From the NCBI GenBank assembly GCA_029210625.1, contig JARGFU010000014.1, forward strand, positions 50,956 through 114,955: DNA of 64,000 nt. Direction: 5' to 3'. Position numbers and translations under genes: made by a program. Shown here piece after piece: positions 3,143 through 61,679 of the stretch (position 1 is its first letter; the number at the start of each line of letters is the position of its first letter). The DNA is from Deltaproteobacteria bacterium (GTDB lineage Bacteria > Myxococcota > Myxococcia > SLRQ01). Below the pieces are notes generated by a model that did not search any database, was not told the DNA's origin, and saw only the letters and a program-made list of their open reading frames with translations.

Positions 3143-3180
3143 GGGGGAAAAAAAGCGCCGGAGGGCCTATAGATCACCGG

Positions 3181-4965
3181 GTGTCCCGGGCGCTCATCAA
3201 GGTCGGCTACGGCTGCAACGACCACTGCACCTTCTGCCACAGCCTCGAGGATCGCGGCCGGAACGACGACGGACGGCGGGTCGCAGCGAAGATCGACCGG
3301 GCCGCGGACCTGGGCCACTCCATGGCGGTCCTCTCCGGGGGTGAGCCCACCATCCGCCCGGAGCTGATGGCCTGGGCCCGCCACACCCGGAGGCGCGGCC
3401 TGGGCTTCGGGCTGGTCACCAACGGCCGGATGCTCGCCTACGGCGAGAAGGTCGAGGCCCTCCTGGCCGAGGGCCTGGGCTACGTCTACCTCTCCCTCCA
3501 CGGGGGGAGCGCCGCGATCCACGACGCCTGCGTCCGGGCCGAGGCCTTCGAGCAGAGCTACGGGGCCGCCCGGAACCTCGCCGGCCGGGGCCTGGACTTC
3601 ACCGTCAACTGCGTCGTCTGCAAGACCAACCTCGAGCACCTCGACGCCCTGGTCGACCTGCTCGCCCCCCTCGAGGGCGTCCGCCTCACCTTCTCCATGA
3701 CCGAGGCCAAGGGCGGCGCCGATCAGCTCTTCGACTCGGTGGTCCCCCGGGTGAGCGAGGTGGCCGCTGCGGTGGCCGCGGTCATCGCCAGGGGCCGGCA
3801 GGTCGCGCCAGGCCTGCCCCTCCTCCACGGGGGGATCCCCTTCTGTCTCCTCCCGGGGCTCGAGGATCGGCACAGCGACCTGCGCAGCCACGGCTTCGCC
3901 TCGATGTCCGAGGTCTGGGAGGACGACTTCTTCCCGGTGGACAACCGCAACACCGTCCAGCCGGCGCCCTGCCAGGGCTGCCGGCACCGGGGCGCCTGCC
4001 CGGGCCTCTACACCGCCTACCACCAGCGCCACGGAGACGGGGAGCTGCGGCCCGAGGAGGGGCCTCGCTCCAACGCCTTCCACTACGTGCCCCAGCGCGC
4101 CCTCGCCTGGCCTGAGGGGGCCCCCTGCCCGGTGCTGGAGGACGGCCCCTCCCCCTACGACCGGGGCCGGCACCTCCTGCTGCTGCGGGGGGAGTCGCTC
4201 ATCGCCCACCACACCCGCACCCGGGACTTCGCGGACCTCGAGCTCGAGGCGATCAAGGACGCCCTGGGGCAGGTCTACCTCGATCGCTCGACGAAGGACG
4301 CCCCCGACGACTTCGCGGCGGACCTCCAGGCCCTGGAGGAGCTGCCCGTCTGCGCCACCTGCCCGGTCACCGCGCGCTGCACCCACGCCTTCCGCGCCAT
4401 CGACGAGCCGGTCTTCGAGCGGGACGACGCGCGCCTGCGGGAGCGCCTGGGGTCACTGGAGGGCGAGATCCTCGACATCGGCTGCGGCGACGCCCGCTAC
4501 GGCGAGGTCTTCGCGAGCGGGGCCGCGGCCGGGCGCCTGCGCTACTGGGGGATCGATCCGGACGCCGCCCGGCTGGAGGAGCTCGCCCGCCGCTGGCCCT
4601 GGGCCACCCTCGAGGCGACCTCGGCCGAGGCCCTGGAGCTCGCCGAGGCCTCCCTCGATCACGTCCTGGTCCTGCGCGCCTTCAACCACCTGCGGGAACC
4701 CCGGGAGGTGCTCGCCCGCGCCGCCCGGGCCCTCAAGCCCGAGGGCTCCCTGCTGCTGGTCGACAACGTCGCCTTCGGGTTGGTACGCACCCACGAGCAG
4801 GCCGAGCGCGGCGAGCGCGGCGAGGCCGTCTTCGAGCACTATCGCAACGCGGACGATCGAGAGGCCCTCGCCCTCGCCGAGGGGCTCCCCCTCCAGCTCG
4901 TCCACCAGGAGTCCATCTCGCCCGGAACCAGCAACCAGTGGGTGCTGCACTTCCGGCGCACCTGA
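3181..4965 (+). CDS. Radical SAM enzyme fused to a C-terminal class I SAM-dependent methyltransferase domain (rSAM paralog A)
   Basis: GYGCNDHCTFCHS (CX3CX2C); SGGEPT; VTNGRML; C-terminal PCQGCRHRGACPGLYTAYHQRHG; then ILDIGCGDARYG (methyltransferase motif I) and LKPEGSLLLVDN. The track start at 3106 (GTG) lies inside the terminator stem. The next in-frame start is GTG 3181, with GGAGGG 15 nt upstream, so the start is uncertain. Confidence 0.8.
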   Translation: MSRALIKVGYGCNDHCTFCHSLEDRGRNDDGRRVAAKIDRAADLGHSMAVLSGGEPTIRPELMAWARHTRRRGLGFGLVTNGRMLAYGEKVEALLAEGLGYVYLSLHGGSAAIHDACVRAEAFEQSYGAARNLAGRGLDFTVNCVVCKTNLEHLDALVDLLAPLEGVRLTFSMTEAKGGADQLFDSVVPRVSEVAAAVAAVIARGRQVAPGLPLLHGGIPFCLLPGLEDRHSDLRSHGFASMSEVWEDDFFPVDNRNTVQPAPCQGCRHRGACPGLYTAYHQRHGDGELRPEEGPRSNAFHYVPQRALAWPEGAPCPVLEDGPSPYDRGRHLLLLRGESLIAHHTRTRDFADLELEAIKDALGQVYLDRSTKDAPDDFAADLQALEELPVCATCPVTARCTHAFRAIDEPVFERDDARLRERLGSLEGEILDIGCGDARYGEVFASGAAAGRLRYWGIDPDAARLEELARRWPWATLEATSAEALELAEASLDHVLVLRAFNHLREPREVLARAARALKPEGSLLLVDNVAFGLVRTHEQAERGERGEAVFEHYRNADDREALALAEGLPLQLVHQESISPGTSNQWVLHFRRT

Positions 4966-5006
4966 GAGGCGCCGGAGCGCGAGACGAGGAGAGGAAGAGG
5001 GACACG

Positions 5007-6668
5007 ATGCAGGAAAGTGACGCCATCCTCCCGGGAGGGGGGAGCGAGGCCGACAAGATCGCCGAGAAGGAGTCCGCCGCCCACGAGAAGCGCCAGTGGG
5101 TCCGGCTGACCAGCTACTGCAACAACCGCTGCACCTTCTGCCTCGACTCGGCTGCGCACAACGGGACCTTCGTCTCCCGCCGGGAGGTGAGAAGGCAGAT
5201 CATGGACGGCCGCTCTCAGGGGGCCACCCGCCTGATCCTCTCCGGCGGCGAGCCGACCATCCACCCGAACTTCGTCGAGTTCGTGAAGCTCGGGCGGCAG
5301 CTCGGCTACACCAAGGTCCAGACCGTCACCAACGGGCGGCTCTTCTCCTATCCCAAGTTCCTCGCGGCCTGCCTGGACGCCGGCCTCTCCGAGATCACCT
5401 TCTCGGTCCACGGGCACACCGCCAAGGTCCACGACGCCCTCGTCGGGGTGCAGGGCGCCTACGAGGAGGAGCTCGAGGGTCTGGTGGCCGCCCTATCCGA
5501 CGGCCGCCCGATCGTGAACGTGGACGTCTGCCTCAACCGGGGCAACATCAAGGGGCTCCCCACCCTCCTCGACGAGATGATGGAGAAGGGCGTGCGGGAG
5601 TTCGACCTCCTGCACATCATCCCCTTCGGCCGGGCCTTCGATGAGGGCAAGACCGGCCTCTTCTACGACATCGACGAGGCCATGCCCTCCATCCAGTACG
5701 CCCTGGAGCTCTCCAAGCGCCCGGACGTCCACATCTGGTTCAACCGCTTCCCGCCGCCCTATCTCGAGGGCCACGAGGAGCTGATCCAGGATCCCTACAA
5801 GCTCGGCGACGAGGTGCGGGGTCGCCGGGAGGAGTACGACCGCTGGATCGACCAGGGTATCCCGATCTCCTGCCGGGCGCCGGAGCGCTGCTCCCGCTGC
5901 TACCTCGTGCAGCTCTGCGGCAGCCTGGAGGCCCACCTCGCCTCGCGGCAGGCCGACGACTTCGAGGTGCTGCAGGTGCAGGTGGCCGCCGACGGCGCCT
6001 TCTCTCCCCCGGGGGAGAGTAAGGCCGCCGAGCTCTGGATCCGCGCCGCGGATCTCGGCAGCGCCCGGAAGGCCGCCCGGGGCCTGCCGGGGGAGCGCCT
6101 GACCCTGGAGCTCGAGAGCTTCGCGGGACTGGCCGAGGCCCTGGCACCCGACGGAACGCTGGATGGGAGGCCCCTGCGGGCGGCCTACGTGGCCTCCGCC
6201 GGGGAGCTGGACGCGCTCCTGGCCCTGCCGGGCGAGTTCGAGGTGGGCGCGATCCTGGGCGCCGAGCTGGCTGCCCACCTGATGGAGCGCTGGCCGGAGC
6301 CCCCCGCCCGCCTGGTGCTGGCCGCCCGGGGCCGGGAGCGCCTGACGACCGAGAAGGAGCAGGGCGCCGACCTGAAGGCCTTCTTCGAGGCCTACGCGCC
6401 CGACACGAAGGTGCCGGTTGAGGGGGTGCCCGCCTGCCTGGTCGGCGACCCCGAGCGGATCCGGCCCCGGCGCCGGACCCTGACCACCGCCAGCCTCGAC
6501 GGCGCGGGCCGGACCGACATCTTCGCCTTCACCGGCCAGTACATCCTCGACGACTACCTCACCAAGAGCCACCGCTGCTCGGAGTGTCGTCTGAACGACG
6601 AATGCCCCGGTGCGCACATCAACTACGTGCGCGCCCGGGGCTATTCGCAGCTACAGCCCTTGAAGTGA
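5007..6668 (+). CDS. Radical SAM enzyme (rSAM paralog B) with a long C-terminal extension
   Basis: TSYCNNRCTFCLDS; SGGEPTIHP; VTNGRLFSY; an internal CRAPERCSRCYLVQLC; terminal HRCSECRLNDECPGAHINYVRARG. ATG 5007 is preceded by GAGGAGAGGAAGAGGG. The track start at 4938 would overlap the upstream gene. Confidence 0.8.
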   Translation: MQESDAILPGGGSEADKIAEKESAAHEKRQWVRLTSYCNNRCTFCLDSAAHNGTFVSRREVRRQIMDGRSQGATRLILSGGEPTIHPNFVEFVKLGRQLGYTKVQTVTNGRLFSYPKFLAACLDAGLSEITFSVHGHTAKVHDALVGVQGAYEEELEGLVAALSDGRPIVNVDVCLNRGNIKGLPTLLDEMMEKGVREFDLLHIIPFGRAFDEGKTGLFYDIDEAMPSIQYALELSKRPDVHIWFNRFPPPYLEGHEELIQDPYKLGDEVRGRREEYDRWIDQGIPISCRAPERCSRCYLVQLCGSLEAHLASRQADDFEVLQVQVAADGAFSPPGESKAAELWIRAADLGSARKAARGLPGERLTLELESFAGLAEALAPDGTLDGRPLRAAYVASAGELDALLALPGEFEVGAILGAELAAHLMERWPEPPARLVLAARGRERLTTEKEQGADLKAFFEAYAPDTKVPVEGVPACLVGDPERIRPRRRTLTTASLDGAGRTDIFAFTGQYILDDYLTKSHRCSECRLNDECPGAHINYVRARGYSQLQPLK

Positions 6669-6711: not shown

Positions 6712-7572
6712 TCAATCCACGCGGATGTAGTAGTTGACGACGACCGTCTTCGGCCGGGTCTCCGCCTGACCGAAGTCGCCGGTGGCGGCGTTCTGCACCT
6801 TCTGCGGCGAGGAGGTGTTCTGCACGGCCGGATCGACCGTGCCACCCACCGGGCCGGCGTAGGACGCGACCGAGTGCGAGTGGGTGCGGAGCTGATCCGA
6901 CTGGTAGCCGCCGAGCGCGGTGTTCTCCTGGTAGATGTCCACGGCCGAGTTGATCACGTCGGGCCGCGCCGGCGCGCCCTTGTGACCCCGGAGGAAGACA
7001 CCCCGGAGGTCCGGGACGTTGGTGCTGCCGGTGAGGGCCGCGTAGCGGGTGCCCGCCGCGCTCTGGCCGTCGGCCAGCATCCAGCCGCCGCCGTGGACCG
7101 TGTTGAAGTCGGTCTCGTCCAGCACGCTGGCCACGATGTCGCCGATGCCGAGGCCGCCGCTGTTGGTCCGCAGGGAGTAGACGCCCGCGGAGACCTTCTG
7201 GAAGCCCAGGTCCGAGATCGACGTGCCGAGGTCGCCGCCGCGGCCGGCCACCCGGATCCACACCGGCTGAACGGCCGTCGCCAGGCGGGTACGGCAGGTC
7301 GGATCCGTCACCTCGAAGGTGAACTTGCCGGCCACCACGTCCACCGACTGCGAGGTGTTCGACCCGCAGATGTTGGAGGGGTTGGTGTCGGAGGTGACGA
7401 ACTCGACCACGAGGTCGTAGGTGCCGTCGTCGAGCGGAGCTCCGTTGACCCAGATCTCACCCTGGTAGATCAGGGGGATACCGTCGGGCATCTGGGCGGA
7501 GACGGGGCCGGCGGTCAGCGCCGCCAGCAGGGTGGCCGTGAGAAGAAGGCCATGGCGCATGTCGAACTTCAT
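6712..7572 (-). CDS. Secreted phage-tail-collar-domain protein (MdpB-like)
   Basis: Signal peptide MKFDMRHGLLLTATLLAALTAGPVSAQ. C-terminal ...GWMLADGQ...VPDLRGVFLRG...HSHS...ETRPKTVVVNYYIRVD is typical of the tail collar fold. ATG 7572 is preceded by GGAGGG and overlaps the upstream stop (ATGA). Confidence 0.7.
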   Translation of the reverse strand: MKFDMRHGLLLTATLLAALTAGPVSAQMPDGIPLIYQGEIWVNGAPLDDGTYDLVVEFVTSDTNPSNICGSNTSQSVDVVAGKFTFEVTDPTCRTRLATAVQPVWIRVAGRGGDLGTSISDLGFQKVSAGVYSLRTNSGGLGIGDIVASVLDETDFNTVHGGGWMLADGQSAAGTRYAALTGSTNVPDLRGVFLRGHKGAPARPDVINSAVDIYQENTALGGYQSDQLRTHSHSVASYAGPVGGTVDPAVQNTSSPQKVQNAATGDFGQAETRPKTVVVNYYIRVD

Positions 7573-8099
7573 TGGGTGATCCCTCCACAAACCTGAATTC
7601 CACTGCCGGCCACGGGAGCGCAGCCCGCTCCGATCCGGCTTTCCATGATTCGCTTTTCCCTGATGCCCAGGGGCGCAGTCCGCTTCATGCCACCGAGGTG
7701 GCCCATGAGGCGGATGCAGAGACACTCGCCGCCCAGGGGATCGTCACCCCCCGCACGGCAGCGCACCGACTCCGAGTCCGCACAGCCGCAGGTGCCGTGC
7801 AGGGCGGTCATGTCGGTCTGGCCCGGGTCACAGGGAGTCAAGGTCACGCCGCCGTCGGTGCCGTCGGGCACGCAGTTCCCCGTGGCGGGCTCGCATGTCT
7901 CGCCCGGGTTGCAGGTGACGTTCTCGCAGGGGTCGGTGCCGCCGTCGATCACCCCCGCGACGCAGATCCCGGCCTCACAGTGCTGATCGGCCGGGCAGGC
8001 GTCGTTGGCCCCGCAGGGGCGGCCGGAGGGCTTCTCCGAGATCATCAGAGAGCACGCTCCGAGGAAGAGCGGAAGCAAGAGCAGACTCGCACGGCGCAT
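7569..8099 (-). CDS. Cys-rich lipoprotein
   Basis: MRRASLLLLPLFLGAC lipobox; 18 Cys; module CENVTCNPGETCEPATGNCVPDGTDGG. The start shares 1 nt with the upstream stop. Confidence 0.65.
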   Translation of the reverse strand: MRRASLLLLPLFLGACSLMISEKPSGRPCGANDACPADQHCEAGICVAGVIDGGTDPCENVTCNPGETCEPATGNCVPDGTDGGVTLTPCDPGQTDMTALHGTCGCADSESVRCRAGGDDPLGGECLCIRLMGHLGGMKRTAPLGIREKRIMESRIGAGCAPVAGSGIQVCGGITQ

Positions 8100-9544
8100 C
8101 AGAAGGTCCCTCGCAAGACGACCACGCCCCCGCCCGGGATCGGCGCGGCGGACATGGAGAAGGCGTCTCTCTCGGCTGGCTCGCCCCCTCCCGAGGAGCC
8201 GCCACCCATGTCTCTAAGGAAGAGCCAGGTCGCGACCCCGACCCCCGCGGCGCCAACCACGTAGAAGATGTCGGCGGCCAGGGCCTGGCTCCGGGCCTGC
8301 TTCATGGCAGCCTCGTAGCCCGCGGTGTCGATCTGGGGGGTGTCGTGGGCCAGCTTCTCCTTGGACTTGGCCGAGAGCCCGAAGGCGATCCCGCCGACGA
8401 TGCCGGCGGCGCCCGCCACGCCCGGATAGACCCCGACCGGGATCTTGGAGATGAAGCCCTTGTCGTCCTTCATCGTCTTGATCGGCTCACCCTTCGGCCC
8501 GCGCGGCCGGTTGGTGGCGTGCAGCTTGTCGAGGAGGGCCTCGATGCTGCGCCCGGCGCCCGGGGCGGTCGGCTTGAGGGCCGAGTCCTCGTGGGCGAAG
8601 TAGTGGCCGTCGGCGCCGAAGCGCGCGAGGGAGACCTTGGGCGGACCGGAGTCGGAGGGCTGCAGCACGATGATGGTCGCCTGCTCGGCGCCCGCCCACT
8701 GGGCCAGGGCCCCACCGGCGTCGGGGAACCCGCCGGCCCGGAAGGCGCCCCGGATGCGCTCGAGCTTACCGAGGAGCTCCTTGCCCTTCGGGGCCTCCTT
8801 GAGCTTGTAGCGGGCGATCTGCCCCGCCGCCGCCAGCTGCTTCTCCTGGGCGAAGGCGTAGCCGGTGGCGAACACCGAGACGATGTGGTTGCCCGGAGAG
8901 AGCTTCGGCACCTCGAGGGGCGTGACGCCCGCGTAGCGGCCATCGACGAAGACCCGCGCCGGCACCGGCGCCACCTGGACCTCGAGGGCCGTGGGCGGGG
9001 CCATCTCGGCGCTGCGGCGGGCGTCCTCGACGTGGCTCTCGATGTCCGGGGTCAGGCGGCTGGAGTCGAAGGCGTAGTCCGGCCGGAGCGTGTGCAGATC
9101 GATCAGCTGGTTGCGCGCCTCCGGCACCCTCCCCGCGTAGAAGAGCGCGAGCGCCCGCGCGGCGTAGGCGTCGAGGAGACCGTCGAGGTAGACGGTCAGA
9201 TCCGCCTGCTCGAAGAGCTCGATCGCGGCTGCGAGGCGTCCGAGGGAGGCCTCGTAGTCCATCGCATCGTAGGCGTCGAGGCCGGCCTTGTACTCGGCCA
9301 GGGCCTTCTCGCCCTTCTCCTTCCGCAGGGCCACCTGATCACCGCGGGCGAACGCAGCGGCGTCGATGTAGACCAGGCGCTGGCTCCCCTCGGCCCAGGC
9401 GGCCACGTAGGCCTCGAGTGCGGCGGCTTCCCCTTGCAGGGAGCGATCGAGCGCAACGATGCCGAAGGTCTCTTTCGGCTGAGCCTCCGCTCTCGCCGAC
9501 AGTCCAACCACCCCCAGCACCAAGATCGTCGTAAGTGCCCTCAT
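8099..9544 (-). CDS. PEGA-domain protein with signal peptide and C-terminal TM segments
   Basis: MRALTTILVLGVVGLSARAEA signal; PEGA-like VFVDGRYAGVTPLEVPKLSPGNHIVSVFATGY; TPR-like N-terminal half. Start moved to ATG 9544 (the track start is 9580). Confidence 0.65.
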   Translation of the reverse strand: MRALTTILVLGVVGLSARAEAQPKETFGIVALDRSLQGEAAALEAYVAAWAEGSQRLVYIDAAAFARGDQVALRKEKGEKALAEYKAGLDAYDAMDYEASLGRLAAAIELFEQADLTVYLDGLLDAYAARALALFYAGRVPEARNQLIDLHTLRPDYAFDSSRLTPDIESHVEDARRSAEMAPPTALEVQVAPVPARVFVDGRYAGVTPLEVPKLSPGNHIVSVFATGYAFAQEKQLAAAGQIARYKLKEAPKGKELLGKLERIRGAFRAGGFPDAGGALAQWAGAEQATIIVLQPSDSGPPKVSLARFGADGHYFAHEDSALKPTAPGAGRSIEALLDKLHATNRPRGPKGEPIKTMKDDKGFISKIPVGVYPGVAGAAGIVGGIAFGLSAKSKEKLAHDTPQIDTAGYEAAMKQARSQALAADIFYVVGAAGVGVATWLFLRDMGGGSSGGGEPAERDAFSMSAAPIPGGGVVVLRGTF

Positions 9545-9642
9545 GACCGGGCCACAATAGCAGAAAGCCGGGCGGCGCAAACCTTCGAACTCCGGGCGCT
9601 TTCACGCGCCGGGTGGATACCGGCCGCCCTGACCCCCCGAGA

Positions 9643-11685
9643 TCAGAACTTGATGATCTTCGGAGGGTTGGCGCCCTCCTTGATCGTCACCGCCTCGAAG
9701 CGCTCCAGCCCGCTCGGGGGGTTCACGACCTTGATGTTGTGCTTTCCGACCGAGAGCTCGATGTTGCGGGCGGGGCTGCGGCCATGGTCCGTGCCGTCCA
9801 CGTAGACCCGGCACCAGGGGATGCAGTTCACGCTGAGCAGGCCGGTGGCGCCGGAGGCGGCTGGCTTGGTGACGGTCTCCTTGGGCGGCCTCGGCCGCTT
9901 GGGGCGCTTCGGCCGCTTCGGGGGATCGTTCTCGGCCACCACCACCGGATCGGGCTCGGGCGGCGGCGGGGGGTCCTCGACCACCGGATCGGGCTCGGGG
10001 GGCGGCGGCGGGGGATCCTCGACCACCGGATCGGGCTCGGGCGGCGGGGGCGGCGGCTCGGCGACCACCGGATCGGGGTCGGGGGTGGGATCGGGGGCCG
10101 CGATCGGATCGGTGGGGGTGGGATCCGGTGCCTTCACGGGCTCGGGATCGGCCGGCTTCACCGGGTCCGAGGGTCGCACCAGGGGCTGGGGATCACGGGA
10201 ATCGTCCGGCGTCGGGTCCCCGGAGAGCGCGAAGTAGCCGCCGACCCCGGCGAGGATCGCCACCGCTGCCCCGATGCCGATGATCTTCCCCATGGGGGAG
10301 GAGCTCGCCACCGGCTCGTCGTCGTCGTCGCCGAAGAACGCATCCTCGACGATCGGCTCCACGTCCTCGTCGAGGGCCGAGGGACGGATCTCGGAGATGT
10401 CCTTGATCCGGGTCGCCCCCTCGTCGGCGACCGGCGCCGGAGGGACGATCTCCGAGATGTCCTTGATGCGGGTCGCCCCCTCGTCGGCGGCCGCGGGCAC
10501 CGCGGGGATCTCGGAGACCGAGGAGGGCGCGATCCGGGTGGACATGTCCTCCATCCCGGGATCGGCCGCGGGCGGAGGCGCCGCCTGCGGGGCGGGCGGC
10601 GGCGGGGCGGGCGCGGGGACCTCGGCCGCCGGGCCGGCCGCGGCGACCGCCGCAGGGGCGGGCGCGGGCGCGGGCGCAGGCGCCGAGGGCACGGGCGCCC
10701 CGGGGTTGCTGGCGAACTCGGCGGCCGCCTTCTTCGGGAAGGCGAGCTTCTCCTTGATGTGTTCCTCACCGAAGAGGTGGTTGAGGAACTGCTTGAGCTG
10801 GACGTGCGAGGGCGCGTAGGTCCGCTGCGCCAGGAAGTCGTCGATCGCCTCCCGCATCGCCTGGGCCGAGGGGAAGCGGGCGTCGACGTCGCGCTCGAGC
10901 GCGCGCAGGATGATCGCCTCGAGCTCCTCGGGGAGGCTCGGCTGCAGCTGCCGCGGAGGCTTGATCTCCTCCTCGGTGACGGCGAGGAGCATCGCGAGCT
11001 GGTTGTCGCGCTGGAAGACCCGCACGCCGGTGACCATCTCGTAGAGCAGCGCCCCGAGGGCGAAGACGTCGGAGCGGGCGTCCACCAGCTTTCCCCGGGC
11101 CTGCTCCGGGGACATGTACATGAACTTGCCCTTCACCATGCCCGCCTCGGTCTTCACGATCTTGCCGGCGGCCTTGGCGATGCCGAAATCGAGCACCTTC
11201 ACCGAGCCCTGGTAGGTGACCAGGATGTTCGAGGGAGAGATGTCCCGGTGGACGATCCCCAGGGGCTCTCCGGTCTCACCGGTGAGGGTGTGGGCGTAGT
11301 GCAGGCCCTCGCAGGAGAGCGACGCGATCACCGCAGCGATCTGGGGCGGCATGACGCGGCGCTTCTTCCGCAGCAGGCGGAGGATGGAGGAGAGGTCCTC
11401 TCCCCCCAGGTACTCCATCGCCAGGAAGTAGGTCCCCTGCTCCTCACCGAAGTCGAAGACCTGCACGACGTTCGGATGAGAGAGCTGCGCCGCGAGGCGC
11501 GCCTCGTCCAGGAACATGTGGATGAACTCGTCGTCCTGGGCCAGGTGACCTAGCACCCGCTTCACCACGACGGTCTTCCCGAAGCCAGCGGGTCCTTCCT
11601 GCCTGGCAAGGAAGATCTCCGCCATTCCCCCCTGGGCGAGGGGGGTCAGCAGCTTGTATCGCCCTACGGTGTCCGGACCTTCCAT
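9643..11685 (-). CDS. Eukaryotic-like Ser/Thr protein kinase with Pro-rich linker, TM helix and C-terminal PEGA-like domain
   Basis: GGMAEIFLA...VVVKRV (Gly loop and Lys), HRDISPSNILV, DFGIAKA, SPEQ. TM segment IIGIGAAVAILAGVGGYFAL. C-terminal VYVDGTDHGRSPARNIELSVGKHNIKV. Confidence 0.9.
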   Translation of the reverse strand: MEGPDTVGRYKLLTPLAQGGMAEIFLARQEGPAGFGKTVVVKRVLGHLAQDDEFIHMFLDEARLAAQLSHPNVVQVFDFGEEQGTYFLAMEYLGGEDLSSILRLLRKKRRVMPPQIAAVIASLSCEGLHYAHTLTGETGEPLGIVHRDISPSNILVTYQGSVKVLDFGIAKAAGKIVKTEAGMVKGKFMYMSPEQARGKLVDARSDVFALGALLYEMVTGVRVFQRDNQLAMLLAVTEEEIKPPRQLQPSLPEELEAIILRALERDVDARFPSAQAMREAIDDFLAQRTYAPSHVQLKQFLNHLFGEEHIKEKLAFPKKAAAEFASNPGAPVPSAPAPAPAPAPAAVAAAGPAAEVPAPAPPPPAPQAAPPPAADPGMEDMSTRIAPSSVSEIPAVPAAADEGATRIKDISEIVPPAPVADEGATRIKDISEIRPSALDEDVEPIVEDAFFGDDDDEPVASSSPMGKIIGIGAAVAILAGVGGYFALSGDPTPDDSRDPQPLVRPSDPVKPADPEPVKAPDPTPTDPIAAPDPTPDPDPVVAEPPPPPPEPDPVVEDPPPPPPEPDPVVEDPPPPPEPDPVVVAENDPPKRPKRPKRPRPPKETVTKPAASGATGLLSVNCIPWCRVYVDGTDHGRSPARNIELSVGKHNIKVVNPPSGLERFEAVTIKEGANPPKIIKF
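9943..10085. repeat. In-frame tandem repeat (39-42 bp, about 3.3 copies) inside the kinase gene
   Basis: CACCGGATCGGGCTCGGG...TCCTCGAC units on the + strand encode EPDPVVEDPPPPPP repeats in the kinase linker. Confidence 0.85.
10385..10500. repeat. Direct duplication (about 52 bp, 60-bp period) inside the kinase gene
   Basis: Two copies encode DEGATRIKDISEI. Confidence 0.8.
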
Positions 11686-11741: not shown

Positions 11742-12761
11742 TCAGTGCAGGTCGCTCGCCGGAGGCACCGGGACGAACTCGCCCCAGCCATGGCGGGCAG
11801 CGTAGGATTCGTACACGCCCTGGCAGGTGGGCTCGTAGCGGCAGCCCCCGCAGGGCTCACCCTTGACCCGCCCCTGGGCGTCGATCCGGCCGGCCTCCAG
11901 GATCCGGAAGCGGCCGTCGGCCGAGGTCTTCCCGACGCTCCGGGCCAGGGGCGAGGGGGAGCCGTCCTCGACCTCGAAGGAGGTGTACTCGGCCAGCTTC
12001 CGGACGTGGTGCGGCTCGAACTCGACGGTGATGCAGGGGGGCAGATTGGCCAGCTCGAGCTCCGTGCCCGGCGCGAGCCCCTCGGCCAGGATCGCCCGGA
12101 TCTGCCCCTGGAGCTGCTCGTAGGAGGGAAAGAGCTCGTCCATCGCCAGCAGCACCCGCCCCCGCGCGGCCAGGCCGTCGAGGCGGACGGCGGAGACCCC
12201 CATCCCGGCCAGGAGGCCATAGAGCTCGCCCAGGCGATCGACGTTGGGGCGGACCACCACGGTGCTGGTGCAGATCCGGGTCTCGTCGTCGGCGCCGGCC
12301 AGCAGCGCCCGGAGCCCCGCCACGGTCTGGTCGAAGGCCCCCTCCCGGCCGACCAGGCGATCGTGCAGCTCGGCGTCGGGGCCATGGAGCCCCACCAGGA
12401 AGGCGTTGAAGCCGGCGTCCAGGAGGTCCCGGGCGTAGCCCGGCGACCCCAGCCGCCGGCCGTTGGTCATCAGCCCGATCCGCCCGTAGCCGAGCTCGCG
12501 GGCCTGCTGCCCCAGGGCGGGCAGCTCCTCGAGGAGCGTGGGCTCGCCGGAGGTGAAGTAGACCTCGGGCGTCCCCTGATGGGCCTCGAGGAGCTCCCGG
12601 GTGCGGGACTCGGTCATGGCGGCGTTGACCACGAAGCGGAGCTCCCGATCGTCCTCCACGCAGAAGACGCAGTCGTTGTTGCACAGGGGGCCCACGTGGA
12701 GGTGGATCCGCTCCGGGCGGGAGTTCTGGGGGGGGAGATCCTTCATGGCCTCGGAGCCCAT
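11742..12761 (-). CDS. Radical SAM enzyme (rSAM paralog C)
   Basis: GPLCNNDCVFCVED; TSGEPTLL; MTNGRRLG; LHGPDAELHDRLVGREGAFDQT; C-terminal EPCGGCRYEPTCQGVYESYAARHG. Only 56 nt upstream of the kinase gene on the same strand. Confidence 0.8.
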   Translation of the reverse strand: MGSEAMKDLPPQNSRPERIHLHVGPLCNNDCVFCVEDDRELRFVVNAAMTESRTRELLEAHQGTPEVYFTSGEPTLLEELPALGQQARELGYGRIGLMTNGRRLGSPGYARDLLDAGFNAFLVGLHGPDAELHDRLVGREGAFDQTVAGLRALLAGADDETRICTSTVVVRPNVDRLGELYGLLAGMGVSAVRLDGLAARGRVLLAMDELFPSYEQLQGQIRAILAEGLAPGTELELANLPPCITVEFEPHHVRKLAEYTSFEVEDGSPSPLARSVGKTSADGRFRILEAGRIDAQGRVKGEPCGGCRYEPTCQGVYESYAARHGWGEFVPVPPASDLH

Positions 12762-12913
12762 TGTAGACCGCCCGATCCGGGGAGCCAGCCGGAGGGGGCC
12801 GCCGGCCTCCTGTCCGAGAAGAGGAGGATCTGCCTTGAAAGTCGCGGGACCGGCGGGTTAGGATTGGGGCCCAGGGTGAGCTCCCTTCACCCGACCAAGT
12901 GGGAGGCAGCAAC

Positions 12914-13501
12914 ATGTCCAGGTACGACCGTCGATCCGTCCTGAAGCTGATTGGCCTTGGTGCCGTCGCCGCCGGTACCGGCGTCGCCGCGAAGTCCGCA
13001 GTGGCCAGCACCGTGACCCAATCTTCGAACCTGGATCTCGGGCTCGCGTCGGTTCCGACCGCGGCGCCGACCGCGGTCGCCGCCCAGGCGCCCGAGGCCG
13101 TGGCCGTGGACGAGAGCTCGCCCTGGTGGCTGATCGCCCCCTACGGCGTGAACAGCAAGGTGGCCCTCTCCGAGATCCGTCACCTCCAGCACTCCCAGAG
13201 CGGCGCGGTCTTCGCGTTCCTCGTGGCCAGTAACGGCAAGCCCTACCGGATCGACATCTGCCGTCACGACGCCTCGATCGACGCCCCGGCGCCGATCGCT
13301 CGGACCGCCGGCTACGACCTCTTCATCGCCAACGAGGGCGAGGGTCAGGCCCCGACCGATCGGGAGCAGGGCCTCGCCGTCCTCGCGCTCGCCGACGCCA
13401 TCCGCTCGGCCGAGCTCGGCGGGAAGCGCCTCTCGCTCCTGACGATGCGCGAGCGCTGGACCCGCTTCAGCAAGGTCGAGCTGGGGCCCTCCCTGGCCTA
13501 G
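12914..13501 (+). CDS. Tat-signal small secreted protein of unknown function
   Basis: MSRYDRRSVLKLIGLGAVAAGTGVAAKSAVA has a twin-arginine motif (RRSVLK). GGGAGG lies 8 nt upstream of ATG 12914. I recognise no family for the mature part. Confidence 0.6.
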   Translation: MSRYDRRSVLKLIGLGAVAAGTGVAAKSAVASTVTQSSNLDLGLASVPTAAPTAVAAQAPEAVAVDESSPWWLIAPYGVNSKVALSEIRHLQHSQSGAVFAFLVASNGKPYRIDICRHDASIDAPAPIARTAGYDLFIANEGEGQAPTDREQGLAVLALADAIRSAELGGKRLSLLTMRERWTRFSKVELGPSLA

Positions 13502-13543
13502 GCCCGAAGCGCGGCCATCGGATCCTTGACCGGAGGTGGGGCG

Positions 13544-14443
13544 ATGCCGAGGTGGTTCGCCCTCCTCCTCGGGTATCGGTGCAACAACCGCTGCCTGTTC
13601 TGTGGGCAGGCGGAGGTGCGAGAAGCCGACGCCCAGCCGGTAGCGGAGCCTGCGCTCCGCGCCGCCCTCGAGGCTGCCCGTGCTTCGGGATCGCCCGGCG
13701 TCTGGCTGGTCGGCGGTGAGCCGACCCTGAGGGAGGATCTCCCCCAGCTGATCGGTCTCGCCCGGGAGGTGGGCTTCTCGCGGGTCGGCCTGCAGACCAA
13801 CGGAAGACGCCTGGCCTACGGCGGCTACCGGCAGGATCTCCTGGCGGCCGGCCTGACCGATCTCGAGGTCTCCCTCCAGGGCAGCTCCGCCGACTGCCAT
13901 GATCACCTCACCCGGGTGCCCGGCGCCTTCGAGCAGACCCTCCGGGGCCTGCGGGGCCTGAGCGGGAGCGGGCTGCGGCTCGGCCTGGCCACGCTCCTCG
14001 ACCGCTCCAACTTCCGCCACCTGGGAGAGCTGCTCCGGCTCGCCCTCCGGCTCGAGGCTCAGCACCTGCGCTGGTCCTTCCCGCAGGACCGGGGTGAGGT
14101 CCGCCAGGATCCCCGCCGCGTCGGGCCCCGCCTCACCCTCCTGGCTCCCCGGCTGCGAGCAGTTGCCGACCAGCTCGCCGCCGCGGGCGGCGGCGCGCCC
14201 CGCCCGAGCCTCGCCGGGGTGCCGGACTGTCACCACCCCGAGGGCTTCCGGAGAGGTCCGGCCGACCTCTCGGAGGGCCTGCGCACCTTCGGGGAGGCCT
14301 GCGCGGCCTGCCCCTCCCGGGAGAGCTGTCCGGGCCTCGCCGCAGGCTACGCCCGGCACCACGGCACCGCGGAGCTGACTCCCCCGGCGACGGCCCGGGA
14401 GATCCTGCCGGACGACGAGGCCCCGGGCCTCTACCTCGCCTGA
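13544..14443 (+). CDS. Radical SAM enzyme (rSAM paralog D)
   Basis: GYRCNNRCLFCGQ; VGGEPTLRED; QTNGRRLAY; LQGSSADCHDHLTRVPGAFEQT; C-terminal EACAACPSRESCPGLAAGYARHHG. GGAGGT lies 8 nt upstream of ATG 13544 (the track TTG start is 13526). Confidence 0.8.
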   Translation: MPRWFALLLGYRCNNRCLFCGQAEVREADAQPVAEPALRAALEAARASGSPGVWLVGGEPTLREDLPQLIGLAREVGFSRVGLQTNGRRLAYGGYRQDLLAAGLTDLEVSLQGSSADCHDHLTRVPGAFEQTLRGLRGLSGSGLRLGLATLLDRSNFRHLGELLRLALRLEAQHLRWSFPQDRGEVRQDPRRVGPRLTLLAPRLRAVADQLAAAGGGAPRPSLAGVPDCHHPEGFRRGPADLSEGLRTFGEACAACPSRESCPGLAAGYARHHGTAELTPPATAREILPDDEAPGLYLA

Positions 14444-14493
14444 TCCCGGCGACGGAACGAGGACGGCCGCTCCCTACGGGACGGCCGTGTTCG

Positions 14494-14511
14494 CCGGCGC
14501 GATGGCGCCGG
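14494..14511. terminator. GC hairpin between convergent genes (weak terminator candidate)
   Basis: CCGGCGC-gatg-GCGCCGG: 7-bp stem, 4-nt loop, no clear U tract. A second hairpin, ACGGCCG...CGGCCGT, lies just upstream. Confidence 0.2.
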
Positions 14512-14556
14512 ACGCTTCACGCCCCTCCAGCCGGATGGCCGGGGGCGAGAAGGGGG

Positions 14557-14919
14557 CTACCAGGAGCCGTGCGAGCCGTGGCTGCCGTGCGAGCCGTGGC
14601 TGCCGTGCGAGCCATGGCTGCCGTGCGAGCCGTGGCTGCCGTGCGAACCGTGGCTGCCGTGCGAGCCGTGGCTGCCGTGCGAGCCGTGGCTGCCGTGCGA
14701 GCCGTGCGAGCCGTGGCTGCCGTGCGAGCCGTGGCTGCCGTGCGAACCGTGGCTGCCGTGCGAACCGTGTGAGCCGTGGGAGACGTGCTGGGCGAGCAGG
14801 CGGCCGTCGCCCTCGTCGCTCTCGATGCCAGCCGAGCGCCCGGCCTGATCGACAGCCTCACTCTCGACCTTGGAGAGCATTCCCCGTGCACGCTTCTTGA
14901 AAGTCGGAATCTTGGCCAT
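14557..14919 (-). CDS. Leader + HVS-(HGS)24-W repeat peptide; candidate His-Xaa-Ser-type ribosomal precursor (HxsA-like)
   Basis: MAKIPTFKKRARGMLSKVESEAVDQAGRSAGIESDEGDGRLLAQ, then HVS, 24 x HGS, and a terminal W. GAGGGGA lies 5-6 nt upstream of ATG 14919. All variation between repeat units is synonymous only in this frame. Same strand as, and directly downstream of, the two HxsD-like genes. Confidence 0.7.
   Translation of the reverse strand: MAKIPTFKKRARGMLSKVESEAVDQAGRSAGIESDEGDGRLLAQHVSHGSHGSHGSHGSHGSHGSHGSHGSHGSHGSHGSHGSHGSHGSHGSHGSHGSHGSHGSHGSHGSHGSHGSHGSW
14563..14787 (-). repeat. 25 tandem 9-bp units with an 18-bp higher-order period
   Basis: The + strand alternates CGAGCCGTG / GCTGCCGTG, with variants CGAGCCATG (x1), CGAACCGTG (x3), TGAGCCGTG, GGAGCCGTG and GGAGACGTG. 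On the minus strand these read CAC/CAT-GGC/GGT-TCG/AGC/TCA/TCC. Confidence 0.95.
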
Positions 14920-14949
14920 GGCTTCCCCTCGGTGAAAAAAGCTGTTCGG

Positions 14950-14979
14950 ATTCTAGCAGATGCCCCCGAGCCCTGTCCT
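14950..14979 (-). promoter_or_regulatory. Candidate sigma70-like promoter for the HGS-repeat gene
   Basis: On the minus strand: AGGACA (14979-14974), 18-nt spacer, TAGAAT (14955-14950). It lies about 30 nt upstream of the ATG, in the most AT-rich stretch of this locus. Confidence 0.25.
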
Positions 14980-15048: not shown

Positions 15049-15279
15049 TCAGTCAGGGTGCCCTGCCCTCTTCTCCTCGACGGTGAGGGCCAGGACGTAG
15101 TTGGCGAACTCGGCAGTGATCGCCTCGACGTCGTCTTCCTCGTCGATGGCGTCGATCTCGAGCCGGTAATAGGGCTCGACCTCGGAGAGGACGATCCGGG
15201 CCGCCTCGCCGAAGAGCTTGATCGCCTCGTCGGTCGCCGCGCGGGAGTAGAGGCCCTGGTGCAGCTGGAGGACGCTCAC
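15049..15279 (-). CDS. Small HxsD-like protein (paralog 2, 76 aa)
   Basis: LYSRAATDEAIKLFGEAARIVL...ITAEFANYVLALTVEEK is collinear with the upstream paralog (LY-x46/47-FAN-x-(L/V)L). The GTG start overlaps the upstream TGA (GTGA). Confidence 0.5.
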   Translation of the reverse strand: MSVLQLHQGLYSRAATDEAIKLFGEAARIVLSEVEPYYRLEIDAIDEEDDVEAITAEFANYVLALTVEEKRAGHPD

Positions 15280-15779
15280 TTCTCGCCCTCGGCCGGGGCC
15301 TCCGGCGGACTCGCCGGCTCGCCTTCCTTCGGAGCGTCGCCGGACTTGCCGTACTTCTCCTCCCAGGAGAGGGCGATCCCCAGCGGATCGTCGAAGGCGT
15401 CGTCCGAGAAGTCCATCTCGTCGAAGTCGTCGAGGAAGTCACCGCCGACCGCGCCGGAGAGCGCCGAGGCCGCGACGGCCTCGATGATCGGCCGGTTGTG
15501 CTCGGCGATCCGCCGTCGCCAGGCCTGCGCCAGCAGCTCGTTGGCGAAGTCGCCGGCGATCTGCTCCGGCACGCCCGACCCGTTCCGGGGGCGGAAGGTC
15601 ACCTGCACCCGGTTCTCGGCGGGCAGGTCGAGGTAGACGAAGCTACGATCGATGAAGGTGTAGGCGGCTCCGTAGATGTCGTCGAGGTCGTAGAGCTCGA
15701 GGGGGAAGGTCGCCTTGACCACACCCTCGCTCTCGCTCACCTCGATCTGCTCCCCGGCCGCGTTCTTCGAGTCACTCAT
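15276..15779 (-). CDS. HxsD-like protein (paralog 1, 167 aa) with an acidic C-terminal tail
   Basis: Only the last 504 nt of the 827-aa track ORF are used. MSDSKNAAGEQIEVSESEGVVKATFPLELYDLDDIYGAAYTFIDRSFVYLDL...GDFANELLAQAWRRRIAEHNRPII resembles the LLNDYxLRE-type C-terminal motif I recall for HxsD (TIGR03976). ATG 15779 is verified, with AAGGACAGG upstream. Confidence 0.55.
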   Translation of the reverse strand: MSDSKNAAGEQIEVSESEGVVKATFPLELYDLDDIYGAAYTFIDRSFVYLDLPAENRVQVTFRPRNGSGVPEQIAGDFANELLAQAWRRRIAEHNRPIIEAVAASALSGAVGGDFLDDFDEMDFSDDAFDDPLGIALSWEEKYGKSGDAPKEGEPASPPEAPAEGEK

Positions 15780-22802: not shown

Positions 22803-24143
22803 TTGCATCCCTCCACTTATCGTCGTTCCCTCCCCCTGCTGGCCGCCGCCAGCCTCCTCCTCACCCCTCCCCGGGCCAGCCTCGGCCAGGAGGCTCCGGA
22901 CGAGACCGGGGCCGAGGCCTCGGCGGCGGTCGAGCCCTCCGCCGAGGCAGCGCCCCCGGACGAGAGCGAGACCGCCGCCCTGCGAGAGCGGATCACCGCC
23001 CTCGAGGATCGCCTCGAGCTGATGGAGGCCCTCGCCGAGGACGCCCAGGCGCCCCCGCCGACGGCCCTGCCCACCTTCCTCAACGCCCTCAACCCGCGGA
23101 TCACGATCTTCGGCAACGCGGTGGCCCGGGCGGACACCCGGGAGGTCCACGCCGAGGGGCACGGCCACGGGGAGGAGCCCGCCGCCGGGGAGGAGCCCCT
23201 CCGCATCGACAACACCTTCTACCTGCGTGAGACCGAGATCGACTTCCGGGCCGCGGTCGATCCCTTCGTGGACGGGCTGATCACCCTCGCCATCGAGGGC
23301 CTGCCCGACGGCAGCTTCGAGCTGCACGTGGAGGAGGCCATCGTCACCCTGCGGCGCCTCCCCCTGCCGATCTTGAGTGATCCCCCCGGCGGGCTGGTGC
23401 TGCGCGCGGGCAAGATGCGGGCGGAGTTCGGCAAGCTCAACCTGATGCACACCCACGACCTGCCGCAGACCACCCGCCCCCTGGTGCACCGTACGCTGGT
23501 CGGGGAGGAGGGCGCCCTGGGCAGCGGCGTCTCGGGCAGCTTCTTCCTCCCCCTCGATCGCCTGGACGAGGCCTCGACCCTCCAGGCCACGATCCAGCTC
23601 CTGGGGCCGCAGCTCGCCGGCAGCGAGAACGGCACCCACCTCCTCGGCTCGCTGACCTGGTCCCGCGACCTGGGGGCCTCCCATCGCCTCGAGCTCGGCG
23701 GGATCGTGCACCACGGCTTCTCGCCTCGCTTCCCGGAGCTCGCCGACGACCTCACCTTCGGCGGCGAGCTGATCTACCTGTGGCGCCCGGCCGGCAAGTC
23801 CCTCCACCGCGGCCTGATCGTCGGCGGCCAGTACCTCCAGAGCGAGCGCCCCGACGAGGAGGTCGCCACCGCCCGCGGCTTCTACGGCTTCGTCCAGGGG
23901 CAGCTCTCCCGCGAGCTCTTCGCCGGGCTGCGCTACGACCAGAGCGAGGCCCACCACGAGGAGGGCTGGACCCGGGGCCTGATGCCCTACGTCTCCTGGT
24001 ACCCCTCCGAGTTCTTCCGGCTGCGCCTGGGCTACGAGCAGACCTTCTTCGGCCACGGTGAGCCCGAGCTCGGCACCCTCTGGTTCGAGCTCAACGTCGT
24101 CTTCGGCTCTCACCCTCCCCACCCCTACTGGGTGAACCGCTAG
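22803..24143 (+). CDS. Putative outer-membrane beta-barrel protein linked to metal uptake
   Basis: Signal-like N-terminus, coiled-coil TAALRERITALEDRLELMEALAE, His-rich HAEGHGHGEE, and an aromatic-rich C-terminal region ...LWFELNVVFG. TTG start. 9 nt upstream of the ZnuA-like gene. Confidence 0.45.
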   Translation: MHPSTYRRSLPLLAAASLLLTPPRASLGQEAPDETGAEASAAVEPSAEAAPPDESETAALRERITALEDRLELMEALAEDAQAPPPTALPTFLNALNPRITIFGNAVARADTREVHAEGHGHGEEPAAGEEPLRIDNTFYLRETEIDFRAAVDPFVDGLITLAIEGLPDGSFELHVEEAIVTLRRLPLPILSDPPGGLVLRAGKMRAEFGKLNLMHTHDLPQTTRPLVHRTLVGEEGALGSGVSGSFFLPLDRLDEASTLQATIQLLGPQLAGSENGTHLLGSLTWSRDLGASHRLELGGIVHHGFSPRFPELADDLTFGGELIYLWRPAGKSLHRGLIVGGQYLQSERPDEEVATARGFYGFVQGQLSRELFAGLRYDQSEAHHEEGWTRGLMPYVSWYPSEFFRLRLGYEQTFFGHGEPELGTLWFELNVVFGSHPPHPYWVNR

Positions 24144-24152
24144 GAGCCCGCC

Positions 24153-25214
24153 ATGCGAAGCACCCTCCCCTTCCTCCTCTCCCTCACCTTCGCCCTCCTC
24201 CCCGCCGTCGGCCACGCGGCGGACGAGGACGGGAAGCCCCAGATCCTCGCGACCCTCCCCACGGTGGGCGCCCTCCTTCGGGAGGTCGGCGGGGACGCCA
24301 TCGAGGTGAGCGTCCTCGCCCGCGGCGACGAGGATCCCCACTTCGTCCAGGCCACCCCGCGGCTGATGCGGCAGGCGCGCGACGCCGACGCCCTCTTCGA
24401 GGTGGGGATGCGCCTCGAGCTCTGGGTCGACAACGTCACCGGCGGCGCGGGCAACCCCAGGCTGCAGCGCGGCATGCCAGGCCGGGTGGTCCTCTCCGAT
24501 GGGGTGCCGCCCCTCGAGGTGCCGACCCGGATCGACGCCGCCCAGGGCGACATCCACCCCCAGGGCAACCCGCACATCTGGCTCGATCCGGTGCGGGCCA
24601 AGCTGATGGCGCGCAACGCGGCCGCCGGCCTGCAGAAGCTCTTCCCGGAGCAGGCCGCGCTCTTCGCGGCGAACCTCGCCGACTTCGAGGGGAGGCTCGA
24701 TCGCGCCTTCTACGGCGAGGCGCTGCTGAAGACCGTCGGCGCCCGCAAGCTCGACCGGGCGGTGCTCTCCGGGCGGCTGCACGACCTCCTCGATCGCGAG
24801 TTCAAGGGGAAGCCCCTGCGGGCCCTCGCGGGCGGCTGGCTGAAGCAGGCCGAGCCCCTGGCGGGCCGCGACCTCGTCGAGTTCCACAAGGTCTGGGCCT
24901 ACTTCGCCTCGGCCTTCGGCTTCACGCTGGTGGGCACCGTCGAGGCCTACCCGGGCATCCGGCCGGGGCCGGGCCACCTCGAGAAGGTGGTGGCCCTGAT
25001 GAAGGCGAAGTCGGTGCCGCTGATCCTGGTGGACAACTTCTACCTCGAGGATCTGCCCCGCCACGTGGCGGGCAAGGCGGGCGCGGGCTTCGTGATGCTC
25101 CCGGATCAGGTCGGCGGCGAGAAGGACCTGGAGACCTACTTCCAGCTCATCGACCGGATCCTCTCCCACATCCTCGGCGCCCTCGAGGCCGGGAAGGCGG
25201 CGAACACACCATGA
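24153..25214 (+). CDS. Metal ABC transporter substrate-binding protein (ZnuA/TroA family)
   Basis: DEDPHFVQATP, GDIHPQGNPHIWLDP, LFPEQAALFAANLADF. Confidence 0.8.
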   Translation: MRSTLPFLLSLTFALLPAVGHAADEDGKPQILATLPTVGALLREVGGDAIEVSVLARGDEDPHFVQATPRLMRQARDADALFEVGMRLELWVDNVTGGAGNPRLQRGMPGRVVLSDGVPPLEVPTRIDAAQGDIHPQGNPHIWLDPVRAKLMARNAAAGLQKLFPEQAALFAANLADFEGRLDRAFYGEALLKTVGARKLDRAVLSGRLHDLLDREFKGKPLRALAGGWLKQAEPLAGRDLVEFHKVWAYFASAFGFTLVGTVEAYPGIRPGPGHLEKVVALMKAKSVPLILVDNFYLEDLPRHVAGKAGAGFVMLPDQVGGEKDLETYFQLIDRILSHILGALEAGKAANTP

Positions 25215-61542: not shown

Positions 61543-61679
61543 GTTCGTCTCCCTGGATCTCTCGGCACTTAGGGCCTTTTTCGGGTCGCGCACTTGTACC
61601 CGTGCCCGCGGGGAGGGTCAATCGAGGGGCGCAGGCCCACCTCCCCTTCCCCGGGCGCCGATCGGGGTACAATCGCCGG

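Follow-up and report, generated by a model that had tools for sequence, protein, structure and literature searches.

The 64,000-nucleotide stretch analysed here, from a Deltaproteobacteria bacterium of the Myxococcota (assembly GCA_029210625.1, contig JARGFU010000014.1, positions 50,956 to 114,955; hereafter the window), carries a minus-strand gene, hxsA4 (14557..14919). We identify it, with moderate confidence, as a genuine and presumably expressed precursor gene of the HxsA4 class in a variant His-Xaa-Ser (HXS)-type maturation system. Its membership of the HxsA4 family and its linkage to genes for HxsD and for radical S-adenosylmethionine (SAM) enzymes are direct observations, held with high confidence. 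The product, of 120 amino acids plus stop, consists of a 44-residue leader (14788..14919, minus strand; MAKIPTFKKRARGMLSKVESEAVDQAGRSAGIESDEGDGRLLAQ) and a repeat core (14560..14787, minus strand). The core comprises 25 consecutive His-Xaa-Ser (H-x-S) triplets, one HVS followed by 24 HGS (14563..14787), and closes with a terminal Trp codon (14560..14562). Translation confirmed this layout, which the original prediction had described from the letters of the window. The predicted ribosome-binding site was also recovered, as a Shine-Dalgarno-like GAGGGGA (14924..14930, minus strand) read from the sequence 4 nt before the ATG.

Family membership of the hxsA4 product

The hxsA4 product matched the NCBIfam model NF038313, "His-Xaa-Ser repeat protein HxsA4", with 129.3 bits (cutoff 55, E = 7.5e-38). 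The alignment pairs residues 3-89 with positions 1-92 of the 93 in the profile; since it begins at residue 3, the non-repetitive leader is included in the family match. A search of 5.8 billion proteins yielded 156 homologues, most of them 60-200 amino acids long and derived from metagenome-assembled genomes (MAGs) of Omnitrophota, Elusimicrobia, Candidate Phyla Radiation (CPR) groups and Myxococcota. These relatives share a motif of roughly LPxFxKxxxxxLSxxE, followed by H-x-S units and usually an aromatic C-terminus, mostly Trp. No record of the window's own HxsA4 protein was found. In-frame differences between family members give between 3 and 29 units. Each unit is defined by its His and its Ser, while the middle residue is Gly in 53%, Ser in 19% and Ala in 16% of units family-wide; in the window protein Gly takes this position in 24 of the 25 units. 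Only one family member, P0001 with 29 units, has a larger array. The nearest relative, encoded in locus L001, is 77% identical (alignment A1).

The leader has a basic N-terminus carrying the family motif, (K)IPTFKKRARGMLSKVE, and continues as an acidic linker ending LLAQ/H at the junction with the core. Residues P5, L15, E19, A43 and Q44 are conserved (alignments A1 and A4). The terminal Trp is nearly invariant in A1, and proteins of the wider family mostly end in W, QW, GGWC or Y. Together with the adjoining HxsD genes and the HxsC-like radical-SAM genes nearby, the family match supports the proposal in the original prediction that the gene encodes a His-Xaa-Ser repeat precursor.

The HxsA4, HxsC4 and HxsD-like families are already curated by NCBI, and the HxsA4 variant is not new to databases; a literature search found no paper mentioning HxsA4. 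What is new here is the signal-less leader, the largest regular array of its subclass, the absence of HxsB from 64 kb, and a partner protein that we refer to as TAT200.

Coding evidence and candidate transcription signals

The realistic null model for the open reading frame (ORF) is a non-coding 18-bp tandem repeat, not chance. Tandem Repeats Finder reported a period of 18 bp across the array, which arises because the Ser codons TCG and AGC alternate in the HGS units, and other frames across the repeat are also open. A spurious ORF over such a repeat is one reading of these data, and a collagen-like Gly-X-Y protein is another, with a Pfam Collagen (PF01391) match of 43 bits (cutoff 27). A non-coding repeat is excluded by leader homology across phyla, by differences in Ser codon family, by in-frame variation of the repeat number and by a third-position G+C content (GC3) of 0.85, typical of genes in the window (overall G+C 72%). 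The window and L001 use TCG and AGC, which belong to two unrelated codon families, L003 uses TCN only, and all three read HGS. Repeat numbers differ in frame, with 25 units in the window, 21 in L001, 19 in L003, 16 in L081 and 4 in L083. An Rfam search of positions 11000 to 16500 found no RNA family.

The Collagen match was rejected as composition-driven, because Gly is not conserved at the middle position across the family. Bacterial collagen-like proteins (Scl1/Scl2, Lcl; PF01391) resemble the window protein in having Gly at every third residue over 24 units and a Pfam match above cutoff. However, Pro-rich triplets and a trimerisation or anchor domain are missing from the window protein, which scored 40 bits against Scl/Lcl cutoffs of 325-500. 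Both the spurious-ORF and the collagen-like readings are effectively refuted.

The retention of HGS despite shifts in Ser codon family supports selection on hxsA4 at the protein level. Consistent with this, the leader differs from that in L087 by 6 synonymous and 3 non-synonymous codons over the first 27, so that the changes are mostly synonymous. The L087 homologue, P0002, was considered as an out-of-frame orthologue and set aside: it lies on a 706-bp contig of 0.9x coverage, and its sequence past the third repeat and its downstream flank are unrelated. We treat it as an assembly artefact and not as evidence against coding; it is one apparent exception to the in-frame variation of repeat number among the relatives.

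A sigma-70-like candidate promoter, AGGACA-18-(TG)TAGAAT (14950..14979, minus strand), lies in the 129 bp that separate hxsA4 from the HxsD-like gene; it is a pattern match from a consensus scan (1 site versus 0.0 expected in shuffles). On the 3' side, hxsA4 shares a 113-bp intergenic region (14444..14556, minus strand) with a convergent radical-SAM gene. This region can form three GC-rich hairpins lacking a U tract (minimum free energy -65.3 kcal/mol, z = -2.3), and no canonical terminator was found in it.

Linkage to HxsD and HxsC-like radical-SAM genes

On the minus strand the gene order is HxsD, HxsD-like, then hxsA4, which places hxsA4 directly downstream of two HxsD-type genes on the same strand, as originally described. 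HxsD (15276..15779, minus strand, 167 amino acids) scored 50.1 bits against TIGR03976, a borderline match to a cutoff of 50. It carries the motifs LELYDLDDIYGAAYTFIDR, FANELLAQAWR and a C-terminal DPLGIALSWEEK, with LYxxD and NELLxQxxR present (alignment A6); its start codon and an AAGGA ribosome-binding site were read from the sequence, and its profile retrieved nothing meaningful from the PDB. The HxsD-like small protein (15049..15279, minus strand, 76 amino acids) matched NF038315 with 59.3 bits (cutoff 41). Its GTG start overlaps the HxsD stop (GTGA), and homologues keep the same position in L001, L003, L081 and L083.

The original prediction had hxsA4 flanked by radical-SAM genes. This holds for the downstream side, where four such genes lie, and not for the upstream side, where the HxsD genes are followed by genes for a chemoreceptor and an ATP-binding cassette (ABC) substrate-binding protein, neither conserved in related loci. 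The closest of the four encodes an HxsC-like enzyme of 305 amino acids (13526..14443, plus strand, PF04055), convergent with hxsA4. It scored 80 bits against TIGR03977 (cutoff 268) and 115 bits against NF038332 (cutoff 500), and has the motifs CNNRCLFC and, at the C-terminus, CAACPSRESC. In L001, L003 and L083 the TAT200 gene is followed by an orthologue, and in L086 a truncated gene occupies this place. Next is an enzyme of the HxsC4 clade (11742..12761, minus strand; 339 amino acids, 334 according to the gene caller), with the motifs CNNDCVFC and C-terminal CGGCRYEPTC, which reached 251 bits against NF038332, half the cutoff of 500. Its closest named relatives are annotated "radical SAM protein HxsC4" from Myxococcales and Polyangiaceae (38-39% identity).

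Further away lies a long HxsC-like enzyme of 576 amino acids (4938..6668, plus strand), whose true start may be an ATG near 5007. Among the radical-SAM types of HxsA4 loci this one is conserved most widely, with orthologue scores of 270-510 bits in L003, L024, L026, L047 and L077, and 355 bits in L081. The gene before it (3106..4965, plus strand), which overlaps its start by 28 bp, encodes a 619-residue fusion of a radical-SAM domain with a class-I SAM methyltransferase (PF04055 and Methyltransf_11/12/25). The fusion scored 114 bits against NF038332, and related genes occur twice in L003 (224-245 bits). All four enzymes combine a CxxxCxxC motif with a C-terminal auxiliary CxxCx5C motif. They reach 52-82 bits against the HxsC model TIGR03977 (cutoff 267.9) and are homologous to HxsC, not equivalogs of it. 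The different enzyme complement that had been expected for this locus is borne out by these scores below the HxsC and HxsC4 cutoffs and by the lack of HxsB from the window.

A scan of one genome per species with the 305-residue enzyme returned 79 loci, of which 10 contain an ORF with H-x-S repeats. None of the 79 is above 44% identity, so the scanned genomes do not include that of the source species. Five further loci were obtained through the HxsA4 homologues themselves. Where upstream sequence exists, HxsA4 occurs with HxsD, often with an HxsD-like gene, and with 3-9 radical-SAM paralogues. HxsD was present at every such HxsA4 locus of the radical-SAM-derived set, and all four HxsA4-derived loci with upstream sequence (L080-L083) carry adjacent HxsD and radical-SAM genes. 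The expected co-occurrence of H-x-S ORFs with HxsD and radical-SAM genes was thus found in every related locus with enough flank. In a closer relative, whose proteins are 66-72% identical, the 3.1-kb contig L086 has its genes arranged as in the window: kinase, HxsC4-like enzyme, TAT200, radical-SAM enzyme.

In the HxsA4 loci L012, L024, L026, L041 and L082, from CPR, Omnitrophota and Elusimicrobia, 6-9 radical-SAM paralogues stand in a row, some of them B12-binding, which is an unusually large investment for one small peptide. A gene for CutA1, a divalent-cation tolerance protein, directly adjoins HxsA4 in L085 (381..716). In L082, CutA1 (1810..2112) lies about 8 kb from HxsA4, alongside genes for DsbD, a thioredoxin-like protein and Cu-oxidase_4. 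These CutA1 neighbours point weakly to a link with metals or redox chemistry.

The linkage also bears on a second reading of the gene, akin to the metal-binding alternative of the original prediction. The product would be an unmodified, His-rich peptide for binding or storing metal, comparable to Hpn or to the His-rich tails of nickel chaperones, and the radical-SAM genes would be near it by coincidence. The 25 His among 120 residues, a ZnuA/ZnuB-like transporter 9-12 kb away and the CutA1 genes near HxsA4 in L085 and L082 fit such a peptide. Storage, however, requires neither the conserved leader motif nor the invariant third-position Ser nor the terminal Trp, and coincidence does not explain why, in several phyla, the gene is so strictly linked to HxsD and radical-SAM genes. 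We consider an unmodified metal peptide highly improbable, while metal binding is possible for the final product of an HXS-type pathway.

A subclass without a hydrophobic leader segment and its partner TAT200

In most HxsA4 members the leader motif and the repeats are separated by a hydrophobic, signal-like segment, with a maximum 17-residue hydropathy above 1.3. The segment is absent from the window leader (maximum -0.31). Members without it, at 0.42 or below, are those of the window, L001 and L003, together with P0018 (L081), P0021, P0088, P0120 (L083) and P0032; their leaders have in common an acidic linker ending AQ/H. Among them the window array is the largest. When 1.84 billion cluster representatives were searched with a profile built from this subclass, about 25-30 short relatives were retrieved; many other matches of the search were composition-driven. 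Most of the relatives have a leader of about 50 residues followed by AQ-HCS-HGS-HGS-HGS-W (HCSHGSHGSHGSW), that is, 3-5 units.

TAT200 (12914..13501, plus strand, 195 amino acids) is encoded directly upstream of the 305-residue radical-SAM enzyme, in one operon. Its N-terminus resembles a twin-arginine signal, SRYDRRSVLKLIGLGAVAAGTGVAAKSAVA; the RR pair is invariant in 8 homologues (alignment A2) and is followed by a hydrophobic stretch and AVA. No Pfam or NCBIfam family matched TAT200, and a PDB profile search gave no meaningful relative. All loci in which TAT200 was found (window, L001, L003, L081, L083 and L086) belong to the subclass whose leader lacks a hydrophobic segment. The TAT200/radical-SAM pair was present at all 5 subclass loci with enough flank, versus none of 8 loci with a hydrophobic-segment HxsA4 leader. 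At 12899..13501 (plus strand), the gene-caller version of TAT200 (P0121, 162 amino acids) starts downstream of the signal; this annotated start is probably wrong, because a longer N-terminus, MSRYDRRSVLKLIGLGAVAAG, is conserved in three homologues (69-72% identity).

One HxsA4 homologue, P0100 (L080, 3669..4064), has an apparent twin-arginine (RR-type) signal of its own, FCRRDFIARSSVAALVAAVGG, in place of the usual leader. A metallopeptidase-like gene (Peptidase_M54) lies downstream of it.

Comparison with HXS systems and the absence of HxsB

The His-Xaa-Ser system HxsA-D was defined in silico (Haft and Basu, TIGR03976-03979). In E. coli, HxsD-HxsB-HxsC-HxsA was shown to be a broad antiphage system that blocks DNA entry (Li et al. 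2026, PMC13128918). In that system N-terminal cleavage of HxsA requires HxsB, HxsC and HxsD, an SHRSS motif of HxsA bears a +8 Da modification, the site of HxsA action is the periplasm, and HxsC binds HxsD in a complex modelled as the modifying core (PMC13128918). The structure of the modification is unsolved, and the reaction could not be reconstituted (PMC13128918). The remark in the original prediction that the chemistry of the system had never been determined thus still applies to the structure, and no longer to cleavage and mass shift. Of the HXS systems surveyed, 99.7% are in Pseudomonadota (PMC13128918).

Like the E. coli system, the window encodes an H-x-S repeat protein together with HxsD and HxsC-related radical-SAM enzymes, and both systems probably mature this protein before it is exported. 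E. coli HxsA, however, has 214 amino acids, a signal peptide, a peptidoglycan-binding domain and 5 basic H-x-S units, whereas window HxsA4 has 120 amino acids, no signal, no such domain and 25 units that are almost all HGS. TIGR03979 (HxsA) gave no match to it at E <= 0.01, and Collagen was its only Pfam match. Where the canonical order is HxsD-HxsB-HxsC-HxsA, that of the window is HxsD, HxsD-like, HxsA4, with four HxsC-like paralogues that are convergent or several kb away, no HxsB, and a chromosomal housekeeping context. HxsA4 systems (NF038313, TIGR03976, NF038315, NF038332; curated in silico only) share with the window the leader motif, the tandem H-x-S units, the C-terminal Trp and the adjacency to HxsD and HxsD-like genes. 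The typical system also has a hydrophobic leader segment and HxsB between the HxsD-like gene and HxsA4, and the window has neither; its TAT200 partner is confined to a small subclass.

Several observations weigh against assigning hxsA4 to a working HXS-type system. HxsB, queried with the proteins of L080, L081 and L082, was not found in any frame of the 64-kb window. It is present in most HxsA4 loci, where it is the enzyme of about 500 residues between the HxsD-like gene and HxsA4 (in L081, TIGR03978 498 bits, cutoff 370), and it is essential in E. coli (PMC13128918). For defence, E. coli HxsA depends on its peptidoglycan-binding domain, which is missing from HxsA4. HxsC4 and HxsC are the best or near-best NCBIfam matches of the four radical-SAM enzymes, always below cutoff. 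The locus sits among housekeeping genes, not in a mobile or defence island, and PADLOC (2023 release) gave only weak generic viperin-type matches to the radical-SAM enzymes and nothing for the other scanned proteins, a result that says little because the 2023 library predates the HXS paper. As for TAT200, the Tat-signal model TIGR01409 scored 14.4 bits over residues 5-26, below its cutoff of 16.7, and an AlphaFold2 model built from four sequences was unusable (mean predicted local distance difference test score 41).

The missing HxsB may lie elsewhere in the source genome. In a Polyangiaceae MAG, L088, with an NCBI-named HxsC4, no HxsA4 or HxsD was found within 10 kb; radical-SAM paralogues can therefore be dispersed, and HxsB of the window's genome could be too. 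On the other hand, L001, distant by its radical-SAM enzyme (39% identity), has no HxsB either and keeps HxsD, the HxsD-like gene, TAT200, radical-SAM genes and an intact 21-unit gene. The comparison of these two loci supports a system that would work without HxsB in more than one lineage.

A third reading makes the locus a decaying remnant of an HXS-type system, which has lost HxsB and one radical-SAM type and in which replication slippage expanded the repeat of a non-working gene. HxsB and a radical-SAM gene of the 381-residue type, found in L001 and L003, are indeed absent from the window, and the very uniform 18-bp repeat suggests recent slippage. Decay is nevertheless very unlikely: the ORF is intact in frame and has kept its start, ribosome-binding site, junction and terminal Trp, the HxsD and HxsD-like genes are intact and translationally coupled, the leader changes relative to L087 are mostly synonymous, and distant L001 has the same HxsB-less layout with an intact gene.

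Possible chemistry of the H-x-S units

On HAA, HNR and HTK motifs, triceptide synthases, which are radical-SAM/SPASM enzymes such as HaaB, HtkB and YhhB, form a bond between His-C2 and the third-position C-beta (PMC11499958). By this precedent H-x-S is a chemically plausible crosslinking unit. Triceptide precursors and window HxsA4 have in common repeated three-residue motifs with an aromatic residue, here His, in first position, 25 times over in the window. They differ in leader and in motif, the window having H-G-S with a third-position Ser not reported in PMC11499958. Moreover, the +8 Da of canonical HXS does not fit a simple crosslink (-2 Da). No triceptide-type SPASM synthase was found in the window, as GrrM/OscB, YhhB and AmcB are not among the best NCBIfam matches of its radical-SAM enzymes; those models match weakly (about 41-43 bits), and only to the HxsB of other loci.

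These parallels allow another reading, in which hxsA4 encodes the precursor of a secreted natural product, a peptide that is made on the ribosome and modified after translation (RiPP). A radical-SAM enzyme would close each H-x-S unit into a three-residue ring from His to the C-beta of Ser, giving, instead of a protein effector, a rigid poly-macrocyclic peptide or, after proteolysis, many small units, possibly as a metal chelator. Most members of the subclass without a hydrophobic segment look like classic precursors with a leader and a short core, the 3-9 radical-SAM paralogues per HxsA4 locus resemble a biosynthetic cluster, the His-C2 to C-beta chemistry is known from triceptides (PMC11499958), and CutA1 neighbours HxsA4 in L085 and, about 8 kb away, in L082. 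Against a RiPP stand the lack of a dedicated protease or ABC exporter at these loci, exemplified by L083, a compact operon followed by ribosomal protein genes, as well as the lack of a SPASM-type cyclophane synthase in the window and the only measured H-x-S modification, which is +8 and not -2 Da. We regard a RiPP natural product as unlikely.

Proposed maturation and role

For an HxsA4-class precursor in a variant HXS-type system, we propose a pathway by analogy with the E. coli proteins. HxsD and the HxsD-like protein would bind the leader and present HxsA4 to at least one HxsC-like radical-SAM enzyme of the window; such enzymes would covalently modify His and Ser side chains repeatedly along the 25 H-x-S units. 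The leader would then be removed at AQ/H. More speculatively, modification could precede entry into the periplasm, with the finished His-rich product accompanying TAT200 along the twin-arginine translocation (Tat) pathway. This idea is suggested by subclass leaders that have no export signal, by the TAT200/radical-SAM pair that always accompanies them, and by the RR-type signal of P0100. In the periplasm or envelope the product might, again speculatively, serve as a polyvalent array with pH-dependent cationic or metal-binding properties; the sole precedent for such an envelope role is the blocking of phage DNA entry (PMC13128918).

A bolder version, which we think rather doubtful, treats the subclass without a hydrophobic segment as a distinct system. 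Here HxsC-like enzymes would work without HxsB to make 25 identical crosslinked or carbon-bridged units, a regular "polymer" exported via Tat while bound to TAT200, and its role could be periplasmic metal buffering or cofactor-like, not phage exclusion.

With 25 nearly uniform units, the 24 HGS copies in particular, and a short soluble leader, the peptide should multiply the per-unit signal in mass spectrometry or nuclear magnetic resonance. For this reason, and since its enzyme set is reduced by the lack of HxsB, the locus is a practical model for H-x-S chemistry. HXS-type systems also exist outside Pseudomonadota in very different forms, with many radical-SAM paralogues, no peptidoglycan-binding domain and a Tat-like partner; not all of them need therefore be phage defences.

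Other genes in the window

An operon encoding a Ser/Thr kinase and a PEGA-domain protein (6712..11685) sits between the radical-SAM genes. The kinase (9643..11685, minus strand) has a proline-rich linker and a PEGA-like C-terminus, and is followed by the PEGA-domain protein (8099..9580, minus strand). Orthologous kinases occur near the Hxs cluster only in the close relatives L086 (626 bits) and L001 (545 bits), and the operon was for this reason not assigned to the system; the proximity may reflect no more than conserved gene order, or else a regulatory connection.

Elsewhere the window looks like ordinary chromosome and has genes for PBP1A, a ZnuA/ZnuB-like transporter, argininosuccinate lyase, a pyridoxal-dependent decarboxylase of the Orn/DAP/Arg family and large surface proteins. 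The genes at 22803..26761 (plus strand), for an unannotated 446-residue protein, a ZnuA-like binding protein and an ABC-3 permease fused to HEAT repeats, form a probable metal-uptake operon, whose distance of 8-12 kb from the gene for the His-rich peptide is maybe a coincidence.

A large surface protein with Ig-like repeats (1..3075, plus strand) is cut off by the edge of the window. At its end a Cys/Gly-rich stretch is followed by a hydrophobic helix and RRRS, an arrangement that appears to resemble the MYXO-CTERM sorting signal of Myxococcota. Another gene (36805..43878, minus strand) encodes a protein of 2,357 amino acids with FG-GAP and Ig-like domains. At 61527..64000 (plus strand), a gene running off the window end encodes a protein with MopE-type putative copper-binding motifs.

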